A DNA stretch of 64,000 nt from Nanobdellota archaeon (GTDB taxonomy: Archaea > Aenigmatarchaeota > Aenigmatarchaeia > Aenigmatarchaeales > SZUA-1535): NCBI GenBank assembly GCA_015661515.1, contig DQVX01000016.1, positions 7-64,006 on the forward strand, written 5' to 3'. The notes under the pieces are model-generated. The model saw only the letters and a list, made by a program, of their open reading frames with translations, did no database searches and was not told where the DNA came from. Each line of letters starts with the position of its first letter. The stretch's first letter is position 1. Shown in pieces: positions 22,254 through 42,171 of this stretch. The translations under genes were made by a program, and so were the position numbers.

Positions 22254-23543
22254 TTACTTTCCTATTATATTTACATTTTTCATTAAAATAGGGGGGAAAC
22301 AAAGATTTTCGTGCCATTCTTGATTTTTACATATTTCTATTCTATTTTTTATTATATCAAAAAAATCATCATATACAATCCCACCGCTTACAGGAATTAA
22401 TTCTTGATCTGTTTTTATAAACCCAAAAGCTATGTTAAAGCTCATAATACCTTGAGTTGGGTTAGAGAGTTTTGAACCTATAATTTTATATACAAAAATA
22501 CAATTATTCAATTCTTCAATATCAATATCACCTTCTTTTAAAATAATATTATTTGCTTTTACTTCAGGAAGCGAATTATATTTTCTATATGAATTTCCTG
22601 TAGTTTCGACTTCTTCTATATGTGCTGTATAATAATTATGAAGAAAAGATTTTAGTACACCTTTTTCTATTAGTATTGTTTCTCTCGTTTTCAAGCCATC
22701 GCCATCAAAAGCTCTCGATCCAACTCTATGTGGTATTATACCAGAATCTATAAGTGTAAGATTTTCTTTAGCAATAGCTATTTCTGTTTCTTCAAATGCA
22801 CTTTTACCTTTTTGTACAGCATCTGCATATAATTGTTCTACAAGCATTTTCATAAACACACTCCCTGCTATTTCTGGTAAAAGCACTATATCCCATTTCC
22901 CACTTTTTACAGGTTTAGGGTTTTTAAAATTTTTCAAAAGTTGTGTTCTTTTTGAAAAAGTTTCAACATCTTTCAAAAATTTTTCAAAAGTTCTTGAAGA
23001 AAATGTTTTTCTAAAACTTTTTTCTCCACATTTTAGTCTCGCTTCAGCTGAAAGCGTAGTAATTTTTTCATTAATTTCTTGGTTAAATGAAAAAAGAAAT
23101 ATCTCTGAGCAAATAGTTTTTATATTTCCTTTTGGTATTTCCATCTTTGTTATATCAATAATAGAATTTTTGATATCTTTTATTTTTTCCAAATTCATTT
23201 CTTCTATTTTTTTATCATATAAGCATTTCACATTACTTTTCTCATATTTTTCAGGCAACCCAGGAAAAAAATGATCTGGTTTAGAAAGCTTAGCTATTTT
23301 ATATGCAATTCTAATTCCATGTTTAAGCATATTTTCACCTATTCCTGTAAAAGAAAATTTTCCTTGTTTTTTTCCTATTATTACTCTAATACCAACTCCT
23401 GTAAAATCTGTTGTATTTACTATTTCTCTATTTTCTCTCCAAGAAAGCTCATTTATTTTGTCATGTTCTACCCAGATTTCAATATTTTCTACTCCTAACT
23501 TTTTTGCAAATTTAAGAGCTTTTTCAATTTTTTCATAAAACAC
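22254..23543 (-). CDS. pmbA: TldE/PmbA-family metalloprotease modulator (peptidase U62)
   Basis: 429 aa U62-type protein lacking the HExxxH of TldD; overlaps tldD by 11 nt. Confidence 0.7.
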   Translation of the reverse strand: MFYEKIEKALKFAKKLGVENIEIWVEHDKINELSWRENREIVNTTDFTGVGIRVIIGKKQGKFSFTGIGENMLKHGIRIAYKIAKLSKPDHFFPGLPEKYEKSNVKCLYDKKIEEMNLEKIKDIKNSIIDITKMEIPKGNIKTICSEIFLFSFNQEINEKITTLSAEARLKCGEKSFRKTFSSRTFEKFLKDVETFSKRTQLLKNFKNPKPVKSGKWDIVLLPEIAGSVFMKMLVEQLYADAVQKGKSAFEETEIAIAKENLTLIDSGIIPHRVGSRAFDGDGLKTRETILIEKGVLKSFLHNYYTAHIEEVETTGNSYRKYNSLPEVKANNIILKEGDIDIEELNNCIFVYKIIGSKLSNPTQGIMSFNIAFGFIKTDQELIPVSGGIVYDDFFDIIKNRIEICKNQEWHENLCFPPILMKNVNIIGK

Positions 23544-24927
23544 CTATCATCACCTTATTAACTCTGACATGCGGACCCCCGAAACCCACTTTAACTCTTT
23601 GGCCTTCTTTTTTACATCCTAAAAAAATATTAAAATGTAGAGAAAAATCATTTGCTATAGCATCTATAGAGCTAAGAGCTTCTGTCACAAATCCACTTAT
23701 TGGTATTTGAGCAAGCTGTTTTTTTATTTCTCCATTTTCTATCAGATAACATACTCCAGAAGTGAATGTAAAATAGCCTGTAGAAACATTAGTTTCTCCT
23801 CCTTTTGCTCCTATCCCTGAAACATATATTGCTTTTTTTGTATCTTCTATAAGCTCTTCTAATTTATAATCTCCTGGAGACATGAAAAAATTTGTTTGTC
23901 TAACTAATGGAAGCATAAATGCATTTTCAGCTCTTGCATTTCCTGTAGAAGTTGTTGAAAATTTTGCAGCTGTTTCTCTATTATGAAGAAATGATTTAAG
24001 TACACCATTTTTTACAATTTCTGTTTTTCCTTTTTTTACACCTTCATCATCATATGGAACAAAAACTCCATTTTCTTCTACACCACTATCATATATATTT
24101 ACACTCTCAGAAGCTATTTTTTCGCCTAGCATATTTTTTAACAATGAACTTCCAGAAAAAACTAAATCAGCTTCGCATGCATGCCCTAGAGATTCGTGAA
24201 GTAATAAACCTATAGATTTAGGATCTAGAATTACAGGAATTTTTTCTTTTGGTGGAAAGGAAGAATGGAGCATTTTCTCGGTAAGAAAAGATATTTTACG
24301 AACAAATTCACTCCAGTTTTCACTATAAACAAATTCATAGCCTCCTACATTGCTTTTTGTTTCAGAAAGTTTTTGTATTCTTCCATTTTCTTTTGCTACG
24401 GATGTTTGTTTTATTCCTGTGCTTATAAATTTAGTAATAATATCAGCACCGTCTGTTGAAGTGAAATATCTTATTTCTTCCATTTCTCCTAACCATGTTT
24501 CAGATACTTTAATTTTTGCTGAAGTTATAGAAATTTTATTAAGTTCTTCACATATCAAAATTTTTTCTTCAAGAGGAAATTTACATGGATGAAGTTTGAA
24601 GTTTGAGCAAACTTCAGCTTTTTCAGGCTTTCTTTCTGCTAATTCAAAATTAGTACTACATGCTTTTAAAGAAGAAAAGGCATTAGAAATAAGCTTATCT
24701 AAGGATTTTTTATTAAATCCTGTGATACTTGCAAATCCTATTTTTCCATTTTGCATTACTCTTAGCGCTACTGAATATTTTTCTTTTGCTTGTATTTCTT
24801 TTAGTTTTCTATTTTCTGTTTTAATAACAAGAAATCTAAACATATGAACTCTTACATCTGCATAGCTTACAAAGTTTTCAATTTTTTTAATTACATAATT
24901 TCCTATTTCTTTTACTATTTCTTTCAT
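23533..24927 (-). CDS. tldD: TldD-family metalloprotease (peptidase U62)
   Basis: 'LHESLGHACEAD' HExxxH motif; 'GGPHVRVN' Gly-rich C-terminus; 464 aa. Confidence 0.8.
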   Translation of the reverse strand: MKEIVKEIGNYVIKKIENFVSYADVRVHMFRFLVIKTENRKLKEIQAKEKYSVALRVMQNGKIGFASITGFNKKSLDKLISNAFSSLKACSTNFELAERKPEKAEVCSNFKLHPCKFPLEEKILICEELNKISITSAKIKVSETWLGEMEEIRYFTSTDGADIITKFISTGIKQTSVAKENGRIQKLSETKSNVGGYEFVYSENWSEFVRKISFLTEKMLHSSFPPKEKIPVILDPKSIGLLLHESLGHACEADLVFSGSSLLKNMLGEKIASESVNIYDSGVEENGVFVPYDDEGVKKGKTEIVKNGVLKSFLHNRETAAKFSTTSTGNARAENAFMLPLVRQTNFFMSPGDYKLEELIEDTKKAIYVSGIGAKGGETNVSTGYFTFTSGVCYLIENGEIKKQLAQIPISGFVTEALSSIDAIANDFSLHFNIFLGCKKEGQRVKVGFGGPHVRVNKVMIGVL

Positions 24928-24936
24928 AGCTTTACT

Positions 24937-26538
24937 TTACCTCATTTCTCCTTTTTTCCATTGCTCAAGTCTACCTTTTTCTAAAGCAATTCTACTTAAA
25001 AATGTGTGATCTTCTTCAGGAATAGAAACCAAACCTTTTATAGGATCTAAAGCATGTTGCAATATTATTTGCCTTTGTCTTATTACTTCTGGTTCATCTA
25101 TTTTAAATCCATAAAATTCTGGAGGAAGTTCTTCAGGAGGAGTATCTTTTTCTAAGAATTCTTTAATTTTTCTTAAAACTATAATTGTTTGTTGTATAGG
25201 TGCTGAACCACGTTCATATATTATCCAACCATCTTTAAACCCTTTTTGTCTAAGAATGTATAGCAATTTATATACATATTCTTGAGCTTCAGAACCTAAA
25301 GGAATTGGATAATGGGAAGGATTTAAAGGAGAAGGATAAGTTATATGTACAACTTTTAAATATTTTCCAGCGTCTTCAGGAAGATTTTTTATAGCCTCTT
25401 CGGGATCTATACCACAGCTAAGTACATGCTCTATATCAAGTGCCCATGCAGCATAAGGTGTGCCTAAGTTCTTTGCAAGATAATAAAGCTCTTTTGGATG
25501 AGCTATTCTCATCATCCCCTCTTGTCCTTGAGCTGCCATTTGAGTTTCGAAAACTATGTACATTTTATATTTTTCCAAAATAGGTTTAGGATCTTCATGG
25601 ATTCGAGGATTAAAATGTCCCCATATATATTTTGTAGCAACAGCTCCTACCCAAAGCTCAGGATGTTTTATAATTTCTTCATCACTTAACTGCCTTCCTA
25701 CTATACCCATCCATATAGGGTCTTTTTTCTCATTAAGATACTTTGCAACAACATAATAAGCAAATCTTTCTGGACCATAATGAAGATCATAAGAATCAAT
25801 TACCTTAAGACATTCGTTTTTGTAATATTCGATGGCTTTTTCTATAGCTTCTTTTTGGAGTTCTAATTTTTTTATTTCCATTTTTAAATTAGTTTTTTCA
25901 TTTTCATTCTTTTCTTTTTCAAGTTGTTGTTTAAACTCAAGTATTGTTTTTTCTAAAATTTTTTTCTCTTCTTTTTTTCTATCTAATTGGGAAATATGAT
26001 AAGATCTTTCAAATCCCCAAAGAAACTCTTTTATTTTTTCTTCGCTTTCAAAAACAAATTTTTCTAAAAACTTTTCGCTTTCTATAAGCTCTTTTATAGG
26101 TCTTCCCCAAAAATCAACAAGTTTGCTTGGCTGAAATTCACGGAAAAGCATTTGGAATGGTGTATTTTCAGAAGCATGGAAAAGCACATATTTAGCTCCA
26201 AGCTCACCTGCATTTTTCAAGTGTTCTATTAAGCGTTGGTGTGTCATATCGTAAATATCTTTTATTGCAGAATCAAGCATTATAACTTCTCGGCTTGTTG
26301 TAGCAAGCGTTTCTCCATGAAAACCAAAACTTATACCAAAGCGTTTTAGTTCTTCTATACCTTTTCTTAAAAAAGGGTCTTTAAACTCTGTAACAGTATC
26401 TATATCTATTTGTGTAAATGTTACACCATAAGTTAATGCTTGATATCCTTTTCTTACAATTCCAAAAAATTCTTCTTTTTGTCCGCCTGCTCTCCATAAA
26501 CCAGAGCTTATTCCTAATACATAACCCATTTCTCTCAC
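24937..26538 (-). CDS. xylose-isomerase-like TIM-barrel (sugar phosphate isomerase/epimerase / AP-endonuclease-2 fold) protein with a ~100-aa coiled-coil insertion
   Basis: N-terminal half has 'GISFGFHGE' and 'KYVLFHASE'. A Lys/Glu-rich coiled coil follows ('KKEEKKILEKTILEFKQQLEKEKNENEKTNLKMEIKKLELQKE'). The C-terminal half has 'ALDIEHV' and 'VVHITYP', the second set of metal ligands. Confidence 0.4.
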   Translation of the reverse strand: MREMGYVLGISSGLWRAGGQKEEFFGIVRKGYQALTYGVTFTQIDIDTVTEFKDPFLRKGIEELKRFGISFGFHGETLATTSREVIMLDSAIKDIYDMTHQRLIEHLKNAGELGAKYVLFHASENTPFQMLFREFQPSKLVDFWGRPIKELIESEKFLEKFVFESEEKIKEFLWGFERSYHISQLDRKKEEKKILEKTILEFKQQLEKEKNENEKTNLKMEIKKLELQKEAIEKAIEYYKNECLKVIDSYDLHYGPERFAYYVVAKYLNEKKDPIWMGIVGRQLSDEEIIKHPELWVGAVATKYIWGHFNPRIHEDPKPILEKYKMYIVFETQMAAQGQEGMMRIAHPKELYYLAKNLGTPYAAWALDIEHVLSCGIDPEEAIKNLPEDAGKYLKVVHITYPSPLNPSHYPIPLGSEAQEYVYKLLYILRQKGFKDGWIIYERGSAPIQQTIIVLRKIKEFLEKDTPPEELPPEFYGFKIDEPEVIRQRQIILQHALDPIKGLVSIPEEDHTFLSRIALEKGRLEQWKKGEMR

Positions 26539-26539
26539 C

Positions 26540-28084
26540 TTATTTCACTCCAAATTTATCTAATAAAAAGCTTCGAATATCTTCGAAATCACTTCTTACT
26601 TTCGGAAACATATGTTTTTCAATTTGCTCTTTAAATTGGGTTATATAAGGACCTCGCTTTAGTGGATTAGCAATTTTTATTTCAGGAAATATTCCTTCTT
26701 TTTTCTCTTCTTCTTTTTCTTGTTCTTCTTCTGACGCTTCTTTTTTTGTTCCTATTATTTCTTCAATATATTTTTCAAATTCTATTTCTCTACATTTTAA
26801 TTCAAGCATTTTAAGTAGTAAAATATTTTGTGATATAAGATACATTTTGATATCAAAAGTTATATCTTCTATTTCTCCTCCAGGTAATTTAAGTCCAGCA
26901 CGGGCAACATCAATTTCTAAAAACTCATAATACATAAAGTTTGGATTCCAACCGTTCCTTCCATTTAACCAATCTTTAACAATTTCATCTGCAAGCTTAT
27001 CTGCGTATCTTGCATCATTTATAGGAACTATTTTTGCTTTTACTACCTCAAGTTCTTTTGCTTCATCTTTTGGAAGTTTTTTTCTCAAAAAAGGATAAAT
27101 ATCTGCTAATGGTGAAATTTTTAGTTTTTTACCATATAGAATTATATCCCTAACTACAGGATCGTAAGGATATACAAGCTCTTTAAGAGGCGCTCTCTCT
27201 ATAAATCCTAATTCAAACACTCTTAAATTCAACCAAGCCCAAAGCTTAATACAATTAACAAAAGTTGCTTGACCAGAAGATTCAAAAGTTGAAAATGGCA
27301 TTGCTATTCTTTCCGATGGTATTTCTGATCTTAATTTAAGCATTTTATATCGAGCGATATAAGGTTTAAGCCAATTTCTGTATTCTTCTACAAGTTTTTT
27401 TCTTGAATTAACAAGAGCTTGTAATCTTTCATATCTTTCTATAACTTCTCTTCCAAAAAGCTCTTTCCATTCTTTGTAAAGCTTGTTTTTTGTCGCAAGA
27501 ATAACAGCTTCTGCTTTAGATACTTCAAGCTTTTTCGCAATTTCATCAGGATTTTCTTCATCTCCTAATTTCATAAAGTCATAAATTATAGTCGGCCATC
27601 GTGAAACAATTGATCTTAGAGAAACTCCTTCGCCTGTATGAACATCTACTTGATCTACAAAAATAGCTCTTAATCTATGTTCATCATTTCTTTTCAAAGC
27701 ATCTACTATTTCTTTATATTTTCTTAAATCATGAAGTAACATTTCATATTCTCCAACTATTTGAGCTGCTGTAGCAATTCCAACTCTTATTTTTTCTTCA
27801 AGTGTACTTTTTTGAGCTTGAGTTAATTGATAATATTGTGCATGTGTTGGAGAAACTTCAATCCATTCATCCACTTTTTTAACCACCCAATCATCTTTAG
27901 GTAACCAGAATATGAATGAATAAAAAATCCCGGTTGCAGAACCAATAGAGCCTGTGAAGTTTAAAGTAGAAGCGGTACCTATGCTACCTTTTCCTGGTAC
28001 CCAACAATGAAACCATTCAAGCCATTTACTTTTTGGCTCGCTTTTTATTTGTGAGAGATCAAATATAGGCTTTTCAACAACCAT
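26540..28084 (-). CDS. hypothetical all-alpha protein (514 aa), translationally coupled to the TIM-barrel gene
   Basis: Long ORF with no recognisable motif. A 1-nt gap separates its stop from the next start. Acidic 'EEEQEKEEEKKE' stretch near the C-terminus. Confidence 0.5.
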   Translation of the reverse strand: MVVEKPIFDLSQIKSEPKSKWLEWFHCWVPGKGSIGTASTLNFTGSIGSATGIFYSFIFWLPKDDWVVKKVDEWIEVSPTHAQYYQLTQAQKSTLEEKIRVGIATAAQIVGEYEMLLHDLRKYKEIVDALKRNDEHRLRAIFVDQVDVHTGEGVSLRSIVSRWPTIIYDFMKLGDEENPDEIAKKLEVSKAEAVILATKNKLYKEWKELFGREVIERYERLQALVNSRKKLVEEYRNWLKPYIARYKMLKLRSEIPSERIAMPFSTFESSGQATFVNCIKLWAWLNLRVFELGFIERAPLKELVYPYDPVVRDIILYGKKLKISPLADIYPFLRKKLPKDEAKELEVVKAKIVPINDARYADKLADEIVKDWLNGRNGWNPNFMYYEFLEIDVARAGLKLPGGEIEDITFDIKMYLISQNILLLKMLELKCREIEFEKYIEEIIGTKKEASEEEQEKEEEKKEGIFPEIKIANPLKRGPYITQFKEQIEKHMFPKVRSDFEDIRSFLLDKFGVK

Positions 28085-28121
28085 ATATAAATTTAATATT
28101 CTTCAGAATAATAAAATTTAC

Positions 28122-28730
28122 ATGCTTGAACTTTCAAAAGGTGCAGAAGCTATAATTTACAAAAGTGGAAATAAAATAATAAAAGAAAGAATTAAAAAAT
28201 CTTACAGAATACATGAATTAGATGTAAAGCTTAGAAAATATAGAACAAAAATAGAAGCAAAACTTCTAAATGAAGCAAGAAGAGTGGGAGTTAATACACC
28301 AAGAATATTAGAAATTAAAGATTTTTCTATAGTGATGGAATTTATCAATGGAAAAAAAGTAAAAGATATTTTAAATAAAATCAGTCCTGAAGAAAGAGAA
28401 GCTATTTCATTTGAAATAGGTAAAAACATTGGTAAATTACATGCTTATGGAATAGTTCATGGAGATCTTACAACTTCTAATATGATTCTTTCGAAAGGAA
28501 AAGTTTTTTTCATAGATTTTGGTTTAGGATTTTTTTCTAAAAGAATTGAAGATCTTGCTACAGATCTTTCGGTATTAAAAGAATCTTTAAAAGCCACACA
28601 TTATAAATATTTAAATGAGATATGGAATAAAATAATTGAAGGGTATAAAATTTCGAATCCTCAATGGAAAGAAGTTTTAGCTCATTTAAAAAAGGTGGAA
28701 ACACGTGGAAGATATATTAAAAGAAATTAA
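28122..28730 (+). CDS. bud32: Bud32/PRPK-type atypical Ser/Thr kinase (KEOPS subunit)
   Basis: 202 aa; 'GAEAIIYK' Gly loop, catalytic 'IVHGDLTTSNMIL', 'FIDFGLG'. Confidence 0.7.
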   Translation: MLELSKGAEAIIYKSGNKIIKERIKKSYRIHELDVKLRKYRTKIEAKLLNEARRVGVNTPRILEIKDFSIVMEFINGKKVKDILNKISPEEREAISFEIGKNIGKLHAYGIVHGDLTTSNMILSKGKVFFIDFGLGFFSKRIEDLATDLSVLKESLKATHYKYLNEIWNKIIEGYKISNPQWKEVLAHLKKVETRGRYIKRN

Positions 28731-28938
28731 AAAATTATTTGCAATTAAAGGAAAAACTCTAGAAGAAACTCTTGAAAATATAAGTTTCCTTATAATAGTT
28801 TTTTCGGCTATTTTAGTTTCCATAGGTATAGCTCTGGGAAGTTTTTATAAAGGTGTTATTCTTTTAGCAAGTTTAGGTTCATTTACTTTGCTTATAGGAA
28901 TAATAATTTTTGTAATTGCTGAGGTTATGAGAGAATAG
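28705..28938 (+). CDS. small membrane protein (77 aa)
   Basis: Two hydrophobic helices; overlaps the bud32 3' end. Confidence 0.3.
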   Translation: MEDILKEIKKLFAIKGKTLEETLENISFLIIVFSAILVSIGIALGSFYKGVILLASLGSFTLLIGIIIFVIAEVMRE

Positions 28939-29425
28939 TTTTTACTCTTTTTGTTTCATAATATAAAAGCTTTTCTTTGAAATCTTTTCCGAAAGGAGTA
29001 TAATTTCCTATGGTTTTATCTTTTCTTATTACTCTATGACAAGGAATAATGATAAGCATAGGATTATAAGTAAGAGCTTTTATTACTTGATAAATATTTA
29101 ATTTTGTTATATTTGCAAGTTCTGAATAAGTTATTGTTTTTCCAGGCTGTAATTTAAGAAGTGTAGCATATACTTGGTTATATTTATAGCGAGAAACATC
29201 AACTAAAACTTTTTCTCCTTTTAAAACCTTTTCTATTATTTTTTCAAGTTTTTTATCAAGTTCTCTGTTTTCGACTATTTTTGCTTTCAAAGAGTGAAAT
29301 TTTCTTATTTTTTCTGCTCTTGAAATCGCTTTTTCGCGTGTATAATGTAAAGAATATGCTATAGGTTTTTTCTTTTTATAAACGAGCCATACACATTCAA
29401 GTTTATTCCCTAATATTCTTATCAT
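28925..29425 (-). CDS. ogt: methylated-DNA--protein-cysteine methyltransferase (O6-methylguanine-DNA methyltransferase)
   Basis: 'IIIPCHRVI' active-site PCHR motif; preceding HTH 'TYSELANI'. Confidence 0.85.
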   Translation of the reverse strand: MIRILGNKLECVWLVYKKKKPIAYSLHYTREKAISRAEKIRKFHSLKAKIVENRELDKKLEKIIEKVLKGEKVLVDVSRYKYNQVYATLLKLQPGKTITYSELANITKLNIYQVIKALTYNPMLIIIPCHRVIRKDKTIGNYTPFGKDFKEKLLYYETKRVKTILS

Positions 29426-29688
29426 TTTTTATACACACACTTCAGTTTTATTTTGAGAAGTTTATAATTAAGAATTAAATGTATGCATCCTAGAACACTC
29501 ATTAAAATTCCTGCATAGAAATGCACTGTTTTTAATGTTGTTTTATCCATGGCAAAATAATCCCAACTACTTATTTTTGCAATTTTGCCTGAAGGTGATA
29601 TCCACAGCCCTATACCTGTAAATATGAGCATAAAAAATATTACTACAAGTAATAATGAAATAAAAGCTCTTACTTTTTCTATTTCCAT
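29422..29688 (-). CDS. small membrane protein (88 aa)
   Basis: Two TM helices; 4-nt overlaps on both sides give an operon context with the radical SAM gene and ogt. Confidence 0.4.
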   Translation of the reverse strand: MEIEKVRAFISLLLVVIFFMLIFTGIGLWISPSGKIAKISSWDYFAMDKTTLKTVHFYAGILMSVLGCIHLILNYKLLKIKLKCVYKK

Positions 29689-29691
29689 TTA

Positions 29692-31275
29692 TTACACCGA
29701 TATTTTGCTTACATCATAGAAACTTTTATAATCTATCATTTTCTCAAGCTTTTTAATATCTCTTTTGTAGAAATCTTCTTTAAGTTTTCTTTTCTTTTTT
29801 CTTTCCCATTCTTTTATACTCATTGAATATTTCTTCTGTATTTTATCCCTATACCATTGAGGAATCACATTAAATGCACAGAAAGGTACTATTTTTCCAT
29901 CAGGTTGTGCATAATGTATTGTGCATCTTTGTACTCTAGCTATATCATAGTTATAAAGATCCATAAAGTGCATTAGCCCTATAAATAGAGCTTTATGATG
30001 AATATCTCCCAAGGAGCGGTAATCATGTTTTATTATTGCTTTGAAAAGCATTTTGGCAAAATCTAATCCTTTTGGTTGAGATTTTTTATCAATAAAGCTT
30101 CTTAGTTTCCAAAGCACTTTAAGTGCTACAAGAATTTTTGATTTTCCTTTTTCTATTTCTTCTGTTTTTTCTTCAAGATATTCAAGCAAACCTTCGACAT
30201 CAAGAAATCTTGGAAGAGGTATTATTTTACCATCTTTACCTTTAAATAAATATGTTGCCATGCCACATGCAAAATGTGAAGATAAGTAATATTGTGGTTT
30301 TCCTGTAAAAACTTCTATGAAGCGAGAAAGAGCATGTGGTGTCGGAACAGGATAAAAATCTTCTGGCTCTACTATACCAGTTTCGGCTAATTTTTCTATT
30401 ACTTCTGGAATAGTTATTCTATATTTCTTAACCTCTGCTTTAGTCAATTTCCCTACCAATGAAACAGGTTGATAATTAATTCCTCTTACTATATCCATGT
30501 ATTTTATTCCAAATTTAAGTATATTTCCAACTTCATGATCATTGAAAGTTTTTACAACAGTCGGAACAAGCACTATTCCCAAACCTGCTTTTCTGCAGTT
30601 TTCTATTACAAGAGGTATTTCCCAATAATTTTTGAAATTTGTTTTTGGGCTAAGACCATCAAAACTAAGATAAACAGTATTAACACCAGCTTTTCTAACT
30701 TTTATTGCAAACTCAGGATCTAATGCAAGTCTTATACCATTTGTATTTAATTGTACATGGTCAAATCCTTCTTCTTTGGCTATCTCAATTATTCTAATTA
30801 TATCATCTCTAAGCGTTGGTTCTCCACCTGTAAATTGCACAGCTTTTGCTGGAATAGGTTTCATTGCTCTTAATTTTCTAAGCATTTTTCTTATTGTTTT
30901 TAGATCTGGCTCATAAACATAGCCCATGGCTTTTGCATAGAAAAAGCAATAAAAACATTGCAAATCACAGCGATTTGTAACAACAATATTTGCTAAAGCT
31001 GTATGCGACTTGTGTCTTGTACATATTCCACAATTTTTTGGGCAAGGATATTTTGGTTTTATACCATTTTTCACTCCTTTGCCATCACGAGCAAATTTCA
31101 TTGCCCTTAAATACATTTCATAGCTTGCATAGTAAAGATCTTCAAATTTTCCATGCTTAGGACAAGTTTTTCGAATATATACTTTTCCTTTTCTTTCAAA
31201 AATTACAGCTGGAAGGATTCTTAGACATTCAGGACAAAGGCTTTGAGTTTCAGCTATTTTTTTCATGTGAATCAA
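29692..31275 (-). CDS. radical SAM protein with N-terminal Zn-ribbon (527 aa); possibly tetraether-lipid-synthase (Tes/GDGT-MAS)-like
   Basis: 'CPECL...CPKHG' N-terminal ribbon; 'NRCDLQCFYCFF' Cx3CxxC; long C-terminal extension without SPASM or B12 motifs. Confidence 0.6.
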   Translation of the reverse strand: MIHMKKIAETQSLCPECLRILPAVIFERKGKVYIRKTCPKHGKFEDLYYASYEMYLRAMKFARDGKGVKNGIKPKYPCPKNCGICTRHKSHTALANIVVTNRCDLQCFYCFFYAKAMGYVYEPDLKTIRKMLRKLRAMKPIPAKAVQFTGGEPTLRDDIIRIIEIAKEEGFDHVQLNTNGIRLALDPEFAIKVRKAGVNTVYLSFDGLSPKTNFKNYWEIPLVIENCRKAGLGIVLVPTVVKTFNDHEVGNILKFGIKYMDIVRGINYQPVSLVGKLTKAEVKKYRITIPEVIEKLAETGIVEPEDFYPVPTPHALSRFIEVFTGKPQYYLSSHFACGMATYLFKGKDGKIIPLPRFLDVEGLLEYLEEKTEEIEKGKSKILVALKVLWKLRSFIDKKSQPKGLDFAKMLFKAIIKHDYRSLGDIHHKALFIGLMHFMDLYNYDIARVQRCTIHYAQPDGKIVPFCAFNVIPQWYRDKIQKKYSMSIKEWERKKKRKLKEDFYKRDIKKLEKMIDYKSFYDVSKISV

Positions 31276-31943: not shown

Positions 31944-33848
31944 TTATCCAAACCACCAATACCCTGCCCAGGGCCATGGCATTTGAAATGCTATATCTGC
32001 TGTTCTCGCTGTTGAGCTTCGGACACAAAAATTAAATGCAGAATTTTCTTGGAAAGACATAAATTTACCTTCTTGGAGCGAAACCCATATACATTGTCTG
32101 CAGCAATCCACTTCATTTTTACATTCTCCAGTCTCATCATACCATTTTGAACAAATATTATCGCATATTTTTGTTGGATCTTCGCAATCTCCTATCCAAA
32201 ACTGAGCATAAGCAAAACAAGGAGAAGCTAAGTAAAAATTATGCATTCCCGTTTCTTTAAAACCGCGATAAAAAAACTCTAATTTTCTATTCGCATTCAT
32301 TACTTTTATTCCGCATATTTTTGAGTTCTTCAAAGCATCCATGAGCTCTTTTTTCTTATAAGTTTTAGGAGCCATACCTGGACCTTTTATGCATATAGCA
32401 TTCCTACATTTTTCAGCTTCTCCTTTCACAGTTTCATATTTTGCTTCAAGTGTGTGAGCAATAAAAATAGGTGCGAATGTTACAGAAACTCCGTATAAAC
32501 AATTTTTGACTGTTCTTTCTTTCAACTCTTCATTTTCTAAAATTTCTTTTACTTTTCCAAGAGGTTTAGCTTCAATTTTTCCTGTATTTGGGTTATAATC
32601 TATTTCATATACTATCCAGTCTTTCATGTTTTTTGATGTGATATCCATTAAATCAACTTCTTGAATACTGTATCCTGTTGGAGATGAGGGGTCTTTCTTA
32701 AGTAAAAGCGTTTTTATTTTTGTTCTTCCGTTTTCTGTAACTTTTTTTAGTAAAAGAGACCATGCAGCGGTTTGGGTAATTTCTTTAGCAATTTCAGTTC
32801 CATCATTAAAGTAATAATATTGAGCATCTTCATCGGTTATATATCCAGCATTTTTCAAAGTTTCTATAATTACTTCAGGAGAAGCTATTCCCAAAGCAGC
32901 ACCGCTAAAAGAGCATATCCATGCTTGGTTATTCTCAATAAGAATTTTTAGTTTTTGGAAAAATATTGGTGCTCTTTTTTTAAGTTCTGTCGAAGCTTTT
33001 TTAATATTAGTTTTCGAAGGAAGAATAAAAGCCAAATTCTTAACATTAAAGTACTTTTTTGCTTTTTCTGTATAGTCTTTTAAACTTTGTTTGAATTTGT
33101 CAATCCTTTTAGCAGCTTCTTTATCCCCACCTTTTTCTAATCCTTTCGCAATCTCATCTAAGGCAGAAAGCATATCGTCTCCAGTTTCAGCTCTAATCAC
33201 ATATAATTTACCATCCTTTACCATAGGTTCTTTAACTTTTTTCCCACCAATTTTAATTGAGCCTCCAGTAAAATGTATTACTGCTTTTCCAAGTTTTGTT
33301 GTACCCCTTCCAAGTAGTTTAGCTGCTTCTGTTGCAAGTTTTATTCCAGTTCCGTATTTGAATATAAGCTTTCCAGCTATTTTCCCACCTTTTATTATAC
33401 CTTTACTGATTGGCCCACCAAGAAATATAAGTGCAACATCTAAGTAAAACCACCCGCTCCACGCATCACTTTCGACGTTTTCATATCTATCCCAGTAAAT
33501 TATATATTTAGGGTCTCCTAAAGCAGGGAGAGCTTCTTTTGAAATCATATTAAGTTCTTGTGGAAGAATAATCGGAACTCCACATGGCTTTTTTTCTAAA
33601 TAAGGAACTTCACATATTACAACATCTCCGTTACTCTTTCCTCCATATCTGTACGAATAATTATATTCTTCATAATTTTTTGCCACTTCAATAAAAGCGT
33701 CAACTAATCTTTTCTGTGTATTTAAAGCTTCCATTTTCATAAGAAAATCTTTTCCAAAAAGCAAATATGCAAGACCAAAAACAACTAAAGCAAAAACTAT
33801 TATTCTAACTAAAAATTCTAAATTAAGAGATAGAGCTTTTCTTATCAT
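31944..33848 (-). CDS. large signal-anchored extracellular protein with Cys-rich, aromatic C-terminus
   Basis: N-terminal TM 'IVFALVVFGLAYLLF'. The C-terminal 100 aa carry about 14 Cys ('DCEDPTKICDNICSKWYDETGECKNEVDCCRQC') and end 'WPWAGYWWFG'. Confidence 0.5.
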   Translation of the reverse strand: MIRKALSLNLEFLVRIIVFALVVFGLAYLLFGKDFLMKMEALNTQKRLVDAFIEVAKNYEEYNYSYRYGGKSNGDVVICEVPYLEKKPCGVPIILPQELNMISKEALPALGDPKYIIYWDRYENVESDAWSGWFYLDVALIFLGGPISKGIIKGGKIAGKLIFKYGTGIKLATEAAKLLGRGTTKLGKAVIHFTGGSIKIGGKKVKEPMVKDGKLYVIRAETGDDMLSALDEIAKGLEKGGDKEAAKRIDKFKQSLKDYTEKAKKYFNVKNLAFILPSKTNIKKASTELKKRAPIFFQKLKILIENNQAWICSFSGAALGIASPEVIIETLKNAGYITDEDAQYYYFNDGTEIAKEITQTAAWSLLLKKVTENGRTKIKTLLLKKDPSSPTGYSIQEVDLMDITSKNMKDWIVYEIDYNPNTGKIEAKPLGKVKEILENEELKERTVKNCLYGVSVTFAPIFIAHTLEAKYETVKGEAEKCRNAICIKGPGMAPKTYKKKELMDALKNSKICGIKVMNANRKLEFFYRGFKETGMHNFYLASPCFAYAQFWIGDCEDPTKICDNICSKWYDETGECKNEVDCCRQCIWVSLQEGKFMSFQENSAFNFCVRSSTARTADIAFQMPWPWAGYWWFG

Positions 33849-42074: not shown

Positions 42075-42171
42075 AGCGGGGTAGGGCAGCCAGGAGTGCC
42101 CGCCGGGCTCATAATATATTATTTAATGAGACACCCGGAGGTCGGTGGTTCAAATCCACCCCCCGCTACCA
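42075..42171 (+). tRNA. initiator tRNA-Met(CAT) with canonical 19-nt 37/38 intron; CCA encoded
   Basis: A1:U72 acceptor pair ('AGCGGGG/CCCCGCT'); three G-C pairs at the base of the anticodon stem ('CCGGG/CCCGG'); loop 'CTCATA|A' split by intron 42114..42132; T-arm 'GGTGG TTCAAAT CCACC'. Confidence 0.85.

Follow-up and report, generated by a model that had tools for sequence, protein, structure and literature searches.

TldD and TldE (PmbA) make up the U62 proteases, general degraders and trimmers of unfolded peptides. Endonuclease IV (Endo IV; Nfo/Apn1) is a trinuclear-zinc AP (apurinic/apyrimidinic) endonuclease and 3'-diesterase whose fold is a TIM barrel, as is that of the ketose 3-epimerases and sugar-phosphate isomerases of Pfam family PF01261 and of the multinuclear non-haem iron-dependent oxidative enzymes (MNIOs; DUF692), which include MbnB, TglH and PbsC. 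A glutamate-aspartate-histidine-glutamate (E-D-H-E) metal tetrad is common to the whole xylose-isomerase-like superfamily, and extra histidines are typical of its multi-metal branch, to which Endo IV and the MNIO/DUF692 enzymes belong. Proteins that can be compared with these systems are encoded side by side by four genes, here termed A, B, tldD and tldE, in a 64,000-nucleotide (nt) stretch, referred to as the window, of contig DQVX01000016.1 (assembly GCA_015661515.1) from an archaeon of the Aenigmatarchaeota. An exact protein match ties the window to a hydrothermal metagenome-assembled genome labelled "Nanoarchaeota archaeon" (locus tag EYH56_00790), and its relatives put it in Aenigmatarchaeota. 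The original prediction had joined all four genes in a single, uncharacterised processing or modification system. Comparison with other genomes points instead, with a probability that we put at about 80%, to two independent and separately conserved cassettes, A-B and tldD-tldE.

The canonical architecture of the U62 heterodimer has been described (PMC5810440), as has an archaeal TldD/TldE pair (PMC3497727). The pair in the window shows no notable difference from known U62 pairs. It has the same domain architecture as E. coli TldD/TldE and Sulfolobus Sso0660, with an HExxxH motif in TldD only, overlapping genes and an organisation as an autonomous pair. TldD carries all three PmbA_TldD Pfam domains (PF19289, the C-terminal one, at E = 1.3e-62, PF01523 at 2e-9 and PF19290 at 4e-4) and matches the NCBIfam model for archaeal TldD at E = 9e-83; its score of 278 bits lies under the equivalog cut-off of 635 bits, which is unsurprising in a divergent DPANN ortholog. 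TldE has the PF19289 C-terminal domain (E = 7.5e-45), and no HExxxH motif is found in its sequence. The naming of these two genes in the original prediction is thus borne out by the PmbA_TldD domains in both and by the HESLGH motif of TldD. Elsewhere, TldE comes after TldD, directly or overlapping, in 44 of 47 other TldD-bearing metagenome loci. The tldD-tldE genes here encode an ordinary heterodimeric U62 zinc metalloprotease and form a self-contained pair.

The relation of this pair to A and B was examined from both sides. A scan of GTDB for A, with one genome per species, gave 152 matching stretches, from which 80 loci were kept; these species representatives, together with metagenome contigs, make up 90 other A-bearing loci. 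The TldD side is represented by 47 metagenome loci with TldD relatives. Searches by tblastn and by phmmer detected no TldD/TldE up to about 8 kb from A at any of the 90 A loci, and none of A, B, Bud32, DHH or GlyRS was found near TldD in any of the 47 TldD loci. The side-by-side placement of both pairs is therefore found only in this genome among those sampled, and the proposed fusion of TldD/TldE with the 514- and 533-residue proteins into one system is not upheld: the four-gene adjacency recurs in no other genome, and the A-B pair does not co-occur with tldDE on either side of the comparison.

In the nearest relatives whose downstream sequence is long enough, other genes follow B. A YbaK-type tRNA-editing gene comes after B in locus L087 (82% identity), an opposite-strand gene in L089 (77% identity) and an opposite-strand gene for a DRG GTPase in L088 (73% identity), while in L006 (68% identity) no TldD follows B. 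The window and L087 are colinear across a 77-amino-acid (aa) gene, Bud32, A and B, and this colinearity stops at the stop codon of B, which identifies the B/tldD junction as a rearrangement breakpoint. None of the genes that lie downstream in L087 was found anywhere in the window. A rearrangement confined to this lineage, whose DPANN genome is very compact, would have set A-B and tldD-tldE head to tail.

The window is very compact. Its coding share is 89% by a simple open reading frame (ORF) model, and its GC content is about 30%. Same-strand neighbours lie 10 nt or less apart in 16 of 37 pairs (43%), opposite-strand neighbours lie 10 nt or less apart or overlap in 12 of 31 pairs, and there are three runs of three or more tightly packed genes. 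Given the 16 tight junctions and the three runs, three tight junctions in a row are unremarkable. Tight spacing here is packing, and not evidence of shared function. Junctions of 1-10 nt are the default in compact DPANN genomes and no sign of a functional module, so that adjacency-based operon calls in this genome need support from conservation.

Such support exists for A and B. Among 76 non-redundant loci with enough sequence, B lies directly downstream of A in 65, elsewhere in the locus in 2 and is absent in 9, and the A-B junctions typically overlap or leave a gap of 1-4 nt. The original prediction was right that uncharacterised genes are associated here, in that A and B form an uncharacterised, conserved and translationally coupled module. 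The A loci kept from GTDB are almost all from Aenigmatarchaeota, and the pair occurs across the members of this phylum that were sampled. An exhaustive search of 1.84 billion representative proteins with the A profile gave only 281 matches, with a remote tail in Nanohaloarchaea, and by this measure A has no recognisable relatives outside two DPANN phyla. No relatives of A were found on IMG/VR viral contigs, and a viral origin of A was rejected on this ground. Lineage-defining genes such as these are candidates for the ill-known cell biology of ultra-small symbiotic archaea. Their function, once found, would fill a gap, and nothing yet marks that gap as a major one. Literature searches found no papers on Aenigmatarchaeota or DPANN that deal with a xylose-isomerase-like protein or endonuclease IV.

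In the majority of Aenigmatarchaeota the module is part of a larger conserved cluster, examples of which are L001:5547-12496, L003:6154-12503 and most of L008-L085, with all genes annotated as hypothetical. Transcribed divergently upstream of A is c2, two paralogs of about 165 aa with an RTEYPQDT motif, plus a protein of about 100 aa that has a C-terminal amphipathic helix; 63 of 75 loci have both c2 genes upstream. The c2 proteins have no match in Pfam, in a profile search of PDB, or by hhalign against A. Downstream of A-B, in 46 of 61 loci, lies the gene for a KNTase/MNT-like nucleotidyltransferase of about 400 aa with a helical, UPF0332/HEPN-like C-terminal part; within the phylum its sequences share 57-69% identity. 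Only KNTase/MNT-type matches were obtained for it, and its identification as the archaeal CCA-adding enzyme was rejected. The other neighbours of A-B are informational or housekeeping genes, among them those for TFIIB, eIF5A, histone, L35Ae and ABCE1. Isoelectric points of the families were uninformative, as controls are equally basic.

The Nanohaloarchaeal locus L091:7001-14035 has a comparable layout. It contains an A-like gene, an overlapping gene for a 916-aa B-like protein (383 aa longer overall than B), two divergent genes of about 215 aa and a nucleotidyltransferase gene, with matches to the B profile at E = 2e-14 and to the nucleotidyltransferase profile at E = 2e-84. The two 215-aa genes have no detectable similarity to c2. 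A few loci are arranged otherwise. The nucleotidyltransferase directly follows A in L062 and L084, with B missing between them, and in L048 and L056 B and the nucleotidyltransferase are inverted upstream of A. In L090:4802-7526 a B homolog with 58% identity is preceded by ORFs of 157 aa and 202 aa, where the A profile has no match.

In the clade of the window a Bud32-type kinase replaces the c2 genes upstream, and it is there the conserved divergent neighbour of A, as judged by tblastn and gene neighbourhoods. The order kinase-A-B is common to seven close-relative loci (L004-L007 and L087-L089).

B is the component whose fold can be recognised. It matches PF01261 at E = 1.8e-6, with 28.3 bits, just under the gathering cut-off of 31.1, and the same family matches 36 of 51 members of the B family, at a best E of 1.7e-11. 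In a Pfam scan of these 51 members at E <= 1 only PF01261 recurs, and DUF692 (PF05114) is absent from the families listed. An AlphaFold2 (AF2) model based on the 51-sequence alignment (predicted local distance difference test, pLDDT, 90.3; predicted template-modelling score, pTM, 0.87) is an eight-stranded barrel, to which Foldseek matched 90 PDB entries at probability 1.0 and E <= 1e-3. Between strand 4 (residues 117-121) and strand 5 (residues 327-331) the barrel is broken, and all of the intervening sequence, about 200 aa, is extra. Within it lies an insert, residues 146-255, of which 40% are lysine or glutamate (K+E) and in which a helical hairpin spans residues 180-246; the insert is 78-166 aa long across Aenigmatarchaeota. 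The earlier description of B as a xylose-isomerase-like TIM barrel split by a K/E coiled coil is in agreement with this model.

Across the 51 B sequences, which are 34-83% identical to the window protein, thirteen polar residues show no or almost no variation: H74, E76, H100, H121, E257, H308, E331, E340, D368, H371, H398, H409 and E442. Of these, E331, D368, H398 and E442 make up the E-D-H-E tetrad, and a second set, H100, E257, H308 and E340, belongs to a conserved extra subdomain. The protein ends in a conserved C-terminal tail that is disordered in the model.

The remaining histidines invite comparison with Endo IV, with which B shares the TIM-barrel fold (Foldseek E = 1e-4 against the E. 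coli structures 1qum/1qtw). In profile alignments that are weak and individually non-significant, "YVLFHASE" of B aligns on "LLNFHPGS" of Endo IV (H121 on H109), the DxxH motif "LDIEH" on "IDTCH" (D368 and H371 on D179 and H182), and the strand-7 histidine H398 on H216. The strand register of the model suggests further counterparts, since H74 at the end of strand 3, E331 at the end of strand 5 and E442 after strand 8 may correspond to H69, E145 and E261, and "SHYPIPLGSE" after strand 7 resembles "RHHSLGEG", which would place H409 on H231. Plausible counterparts in B therefore exist for eight of the nine zinc ligands of Endo IV, four by profile and four by strand register. The extra invariant histidines are of the kind seen in the multi-metal branch, and the active site of B is probably multi-metal. 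B differs from Endo IV in several respects: it has no significant sequence match to it, it carries the extra 200 or so residues between strands 4 and 5, the invariant residues of the extra subdomain and the conserved tail, and it has an obligate neighbouring partner gene, A. For these reasons B is filed as a new and highly derived family of the xylose-isomerase-like superfamily with a predicted Endo-IV-like site, and not as a member of Endo IV.

The structural matches leave room for another view, in which B would be a single-metal sugar or sugar-phosphate isomerase or epimerase and A, B and the nucleotidyltransferase would make or remodel an envelope or lipid-head-group carbohydrate, with the KNTase-like enzyme nucleotidylating a sugar hydroxyl. 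Among the 45 best Foldseek matches of B in PDB, all of them barrels either of sugar isomerase/epimerase type or xylose-isomerase-like and uncharacterised, the ketose 3-epimerases predominate; E values go as low as 1e-6, and the TM score to the target is 0.6-0.75. Some B family members at JGI are named 'sugar phosphate isomerase/epimerase', the metal tetrad is shared, and the nucleotidyltransferase has its nearest solved relatives among the aminoglycoside (sugar-OH) nucleotidyltransferases. Identity to the ketose 3-epimerases is, however, only 8-11%, and to these enzymes B adds a large insert, a partner protein and the invariant residues H74, H121, H409 and H371, which are Endo IV-type ligands. 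Single-metal epimerases are not known to use extra ligands of this type. In a soluble sugar enzyme, a long coiled-coil partner together with a coiled-coil arm would be unexpected, and the gene context in these reduced DPANN genomes is informational rather than carbohydrate-related. A role in carbohydrate metabolism is on balance unlikely.

A has no match in Pfam, NCBIfam, PHROGs or PADLOC. A search of PDB sequences with the A profile gave a sole match, to a 70-residue N-terminal region of the MRCK kinase (E = 9e-4), which was rejected as a match between helical segments. The AF2 model (pLDDT 81) has a head of five long beta strands and long helices, the strands being drawn from both ends of the protein (N-terminal, residues 38-46 and 67-77; C-terminal, residues 275-286, 385-400 and 403-418). 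Two long antiparallel helices, residues 79-131 and 190-248, project out of the head and are joined by a tip subdomain that holds the most conserved motifs of the family, F-[IV]-D-Q-V-D-V-H-T and R-W-P-T-I. H118, D119, R121, D144, D147, W163 and T165 are invariant. The helices carry invariant polar residues, and in each of the 62 genomes compared their lengths are 52-53 aa and 59 aa; the mean column identity of the family is 49%. A is thus predicted to combine a mixed alpha/beta head with an antiparallel coiled coil of fixed length, at the end of which sits a conserved tip. The 514-aa protein had been described as all-alpha and without detectable motifs; it does lack a family match, and the predicted strands contradict the first part of that description. 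The structure and profile comparisons that had been suggested for both proteins gave a xylose-isomerase-like fold for B and left A an orphan.

A and B may work together as a phosphodiesterase on a scaffold. B would be an Endo-IV-type multi-metal hydrolase, most probably a phosphodiesterase, with a barrel split by a projecting helical arm. A would be a non-enzymatic scaffold with a layout like that of SMC or Rad50, in which the N- and C-terminal parts form a head that carries a rigid coiled coil and a conserved tip. A might bind B, perhaps through the C-terminal tail of the latter, and bring it to a polymeric substrate; the likeliest candidates would be nucleic-acid ends or the nucleotidylated targets of the partner nucleotidyltransferase. 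The partnership with the nucleotidyltransferase would then serve nucleic-acid end processing, or a cycle of nucleotidylation and de-nucleotidylation. This mechanism is tentative, and we hold it to be possible rather than probable.

A broader form of the proposal, slightly more doubtful still, is that A, B, the KNTase-like nucleotidyltransferase and the two c2 paralogs form a core machine of the Aenigmatarchaeota/Nanohaloarchaeota lineage, an ATP-independent analog of Mre11-Rad50 with an Endo-IV-derived phosphodiesterase on a coiled-coil protein. If so, the machine would be a previously undescribed one, working on nucleic-acid ends or nucleotidylated substrates. Mre11-Rad50 (SbcCD) likewise combines a nuclease with a coiled-coil scaffold. 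The differences are that no ATPase domain was detected in A, that its coil is short, at about 55 residues per arm, and that B has a different fold from Mre11. With respect to the ATPase (P-loop-type), no such family match was obtained for A in Pfam or NCBIfam and no Walker A/B or signature motif is apparent among the conserved columns, no explicit pattern search having been made.

Several observations weigh against this interpretation. B lacks a counterpart of the Endo IV ligand D229. The B profile reaches the PDB sequences of Endo IV only at non-significant values (E = 0.26-0.74), the comparison with E. coli Nfo by hhalign gives a probability of 5% over 43 columns, also non-significant, and the best Foldseek matches of B are sugar 3-epimerases and not Endo IV. 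The length of the coiled coil of A is fixed and that of the insert of B ranges over 78-166 aa, and this lack of covariation argues against a simple pairing of coil with coil. Finally, neither c2 nor the nucleotidyltransferase nor c4 was found in the 64-kb window, so that the extended cluster is unconfirmed in the genome under study.

The junctions of the locus itself bear on whether tldDE has been drawn into the A-B unit in this one lineage. As predicted, four minus-strand ORFs, for A, B, TldD and TldE, fill positions 22254-28084 in the ORF list of the window (Table 1). The gap between A and B is 1 nt if B starts at its GTG and 10 nt if it starts at the ATG at 26529. The latter is backed by the homolog consensus MxYxIGxSSG and by a 530-aa NCBI model, and it is preceded by a Shine-Dalgarno-like GGTGA motif; the ATG, giving 530 aa, is probably the true start. 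Between B and tldD there are 9 nt, with a Shine-Dalgarno-like GGAG/GAGG motif in front of tldD, and the genes for TldD and TldE overlap by 11 nt. Of the junctions of 1, 10 and -11 nt that had been given, the first (from the GTG) and the last are thus correct, and the B/tldD gap is one nucleotide shorter; a 10-nt gap occurs between A and B if the ATG is used.

On the upstream flank the divergent Bud32/RIO-type kinase gene lies 37 nt from A, and on the downstream flank a convergent DHH-DHHA2 phosphoesterase gene lies 18 nt past tldE, so that the successive gaps from kinase to DHH gene are 37, 1, 9, -11 and 18 nt. The 37-nt intergenic region probably hosts both promoters. A scan with sigma70-type promoter and terminator models returned background levels, and such models are not applicable to archaea. 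A further small gene of about 77 aa (28705-28932, plus strand) overlaps the 3' end of the Bud32-type kinase gene and is 74% identical in L087; it is below the threshold of the window ORF list, which is 80 aa or more.

The 9-nt gap between B and tldD and the 50 nt before it contain no T-run and no TATA-like element, and from these features it is likely that tldDE is co-transcribed with A-B in this organism. TldD/TldE would be read through from the A-B transcript here, yet remain outside the A-B machinery. Such co-transcription could carry local regulatory meaning, which is a further point against the separation of the two cassettes. In a further reading, TldD/TldE would have been captured into the A-B transcript in this organism alone because it acts on A or B, in maturation or turnover, or needs to be co-regulated with them; the short gap, the Shine-Dalgarno-like motif and the lack of an evident terminator or TATA element in the B-tldD gap can be cited for it. 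This reading is nonetheless improbable, in view of the 43% of same-strand junctions that are equally tight, of the A and B homologs that stand without adjacent TldD/TldE in every other genome sampled, and of the lack, by comparison with relatives, of any feature of A or B that would suggest a cleavable extension, both showing 82% identity and colinear ends with L087.

MNIOs resemble the A-B pair in combining a TIM barrel, a multi-metal site of histidine, aspartate and glutamate, and a tightly coupled partner gene. The His-rich invariant set of B would suit an MNIO-type multi-iron site; at the position of H371 in B, MbnB has asparagine. A is unlike the MbnC/TglI-type partners. A four-part system resembling those for ribosomally synthesised and post-translationally modified peptides, with B as an MNIO/DUF692-type modifier, A as its partner and TldD/TldE as the leader-peptide protease, finds precedent in bacterial clusters that combine an MNIO with a nearby TldD-type protease (PMC12257519) and is in keeping with the tight junctions and probable co-transcription, and is very improbable all the same, because the protease adjacency is not conserved in either sample, the synteny breakpoint coincides with the B/tldD junction, the families listed for B do not include DUF692, the gaps around these genes are too small for a precursor-peptide gene (and neighbourhoods elsewhere hold housekeeping genes), and A-B sits among core informational genes across the phylum, unlike a biosynthetic cluster.

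Table 1. Features of the A-B and tldD-tldE locus, in coordinates of the window
Feature	Position	Strand	Description
Gene A	26540-28084	minus	514-aa ORF; orphan DPANN family
Helix-tip-helix region of A, residues 79-248	27341-27850	minus	helix 79-131, tip subdomain of ~58 aa, helix 190-248 (AF2 secondary structure)
Gene B	24937-26538	minus	533-aa ORF from GTG start; 530 aa from ATG at 26529
K/E-rich helical insert of B, residues 146-255	25774-26103	minus	hairpin 180-208/212-246; 40% K+E (AF2)
tldD	23533-24927	minus	464-aa ORF; catalytic subunit of U62 metalloprotease
HESLGH (HExxxH) zinc motif of TldD, residues 244-249	24181-24198	minus	
tldE/pmbA	22254-23543	minus	429-aa ORF; GTG start; non-catalytic partner
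Intergenic stretch separating A from the divergent Bud32/RIO-type kinase gene	28085-28121		37 nt; A/T-rich (from sequence)
Bud32/RIO-type kinase gene	28122-28730	plus	202 aa; Pfam RIO1, E = 1e-13

Other parts of the window have features of their own. A second tight run of three genes (28925-31275, minus strand) encodes an O6-methylguanine-DNA methyltransferase-like protein of 166 aa, an 88-aa membrane protein and a radical-SAM protein; the last, of 527 aa with an HMPTM-type N-terminal zinc ribbon, is unexpected for a reduced DPANN genome. Beyond it (31944-33848, minus strand) is the gene for a 634-aa protein with an N-terminal hydrophobic segment, a Cys-rich C-terminal region and no Pfam match. 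ARAGORN reported no tRNA anywhere in the window, and Rfam places one of 94 nt at 42075-42168 on the plus strand with 51 bits, possibly an archaeal tRNA with an intron or some other atypical feature.

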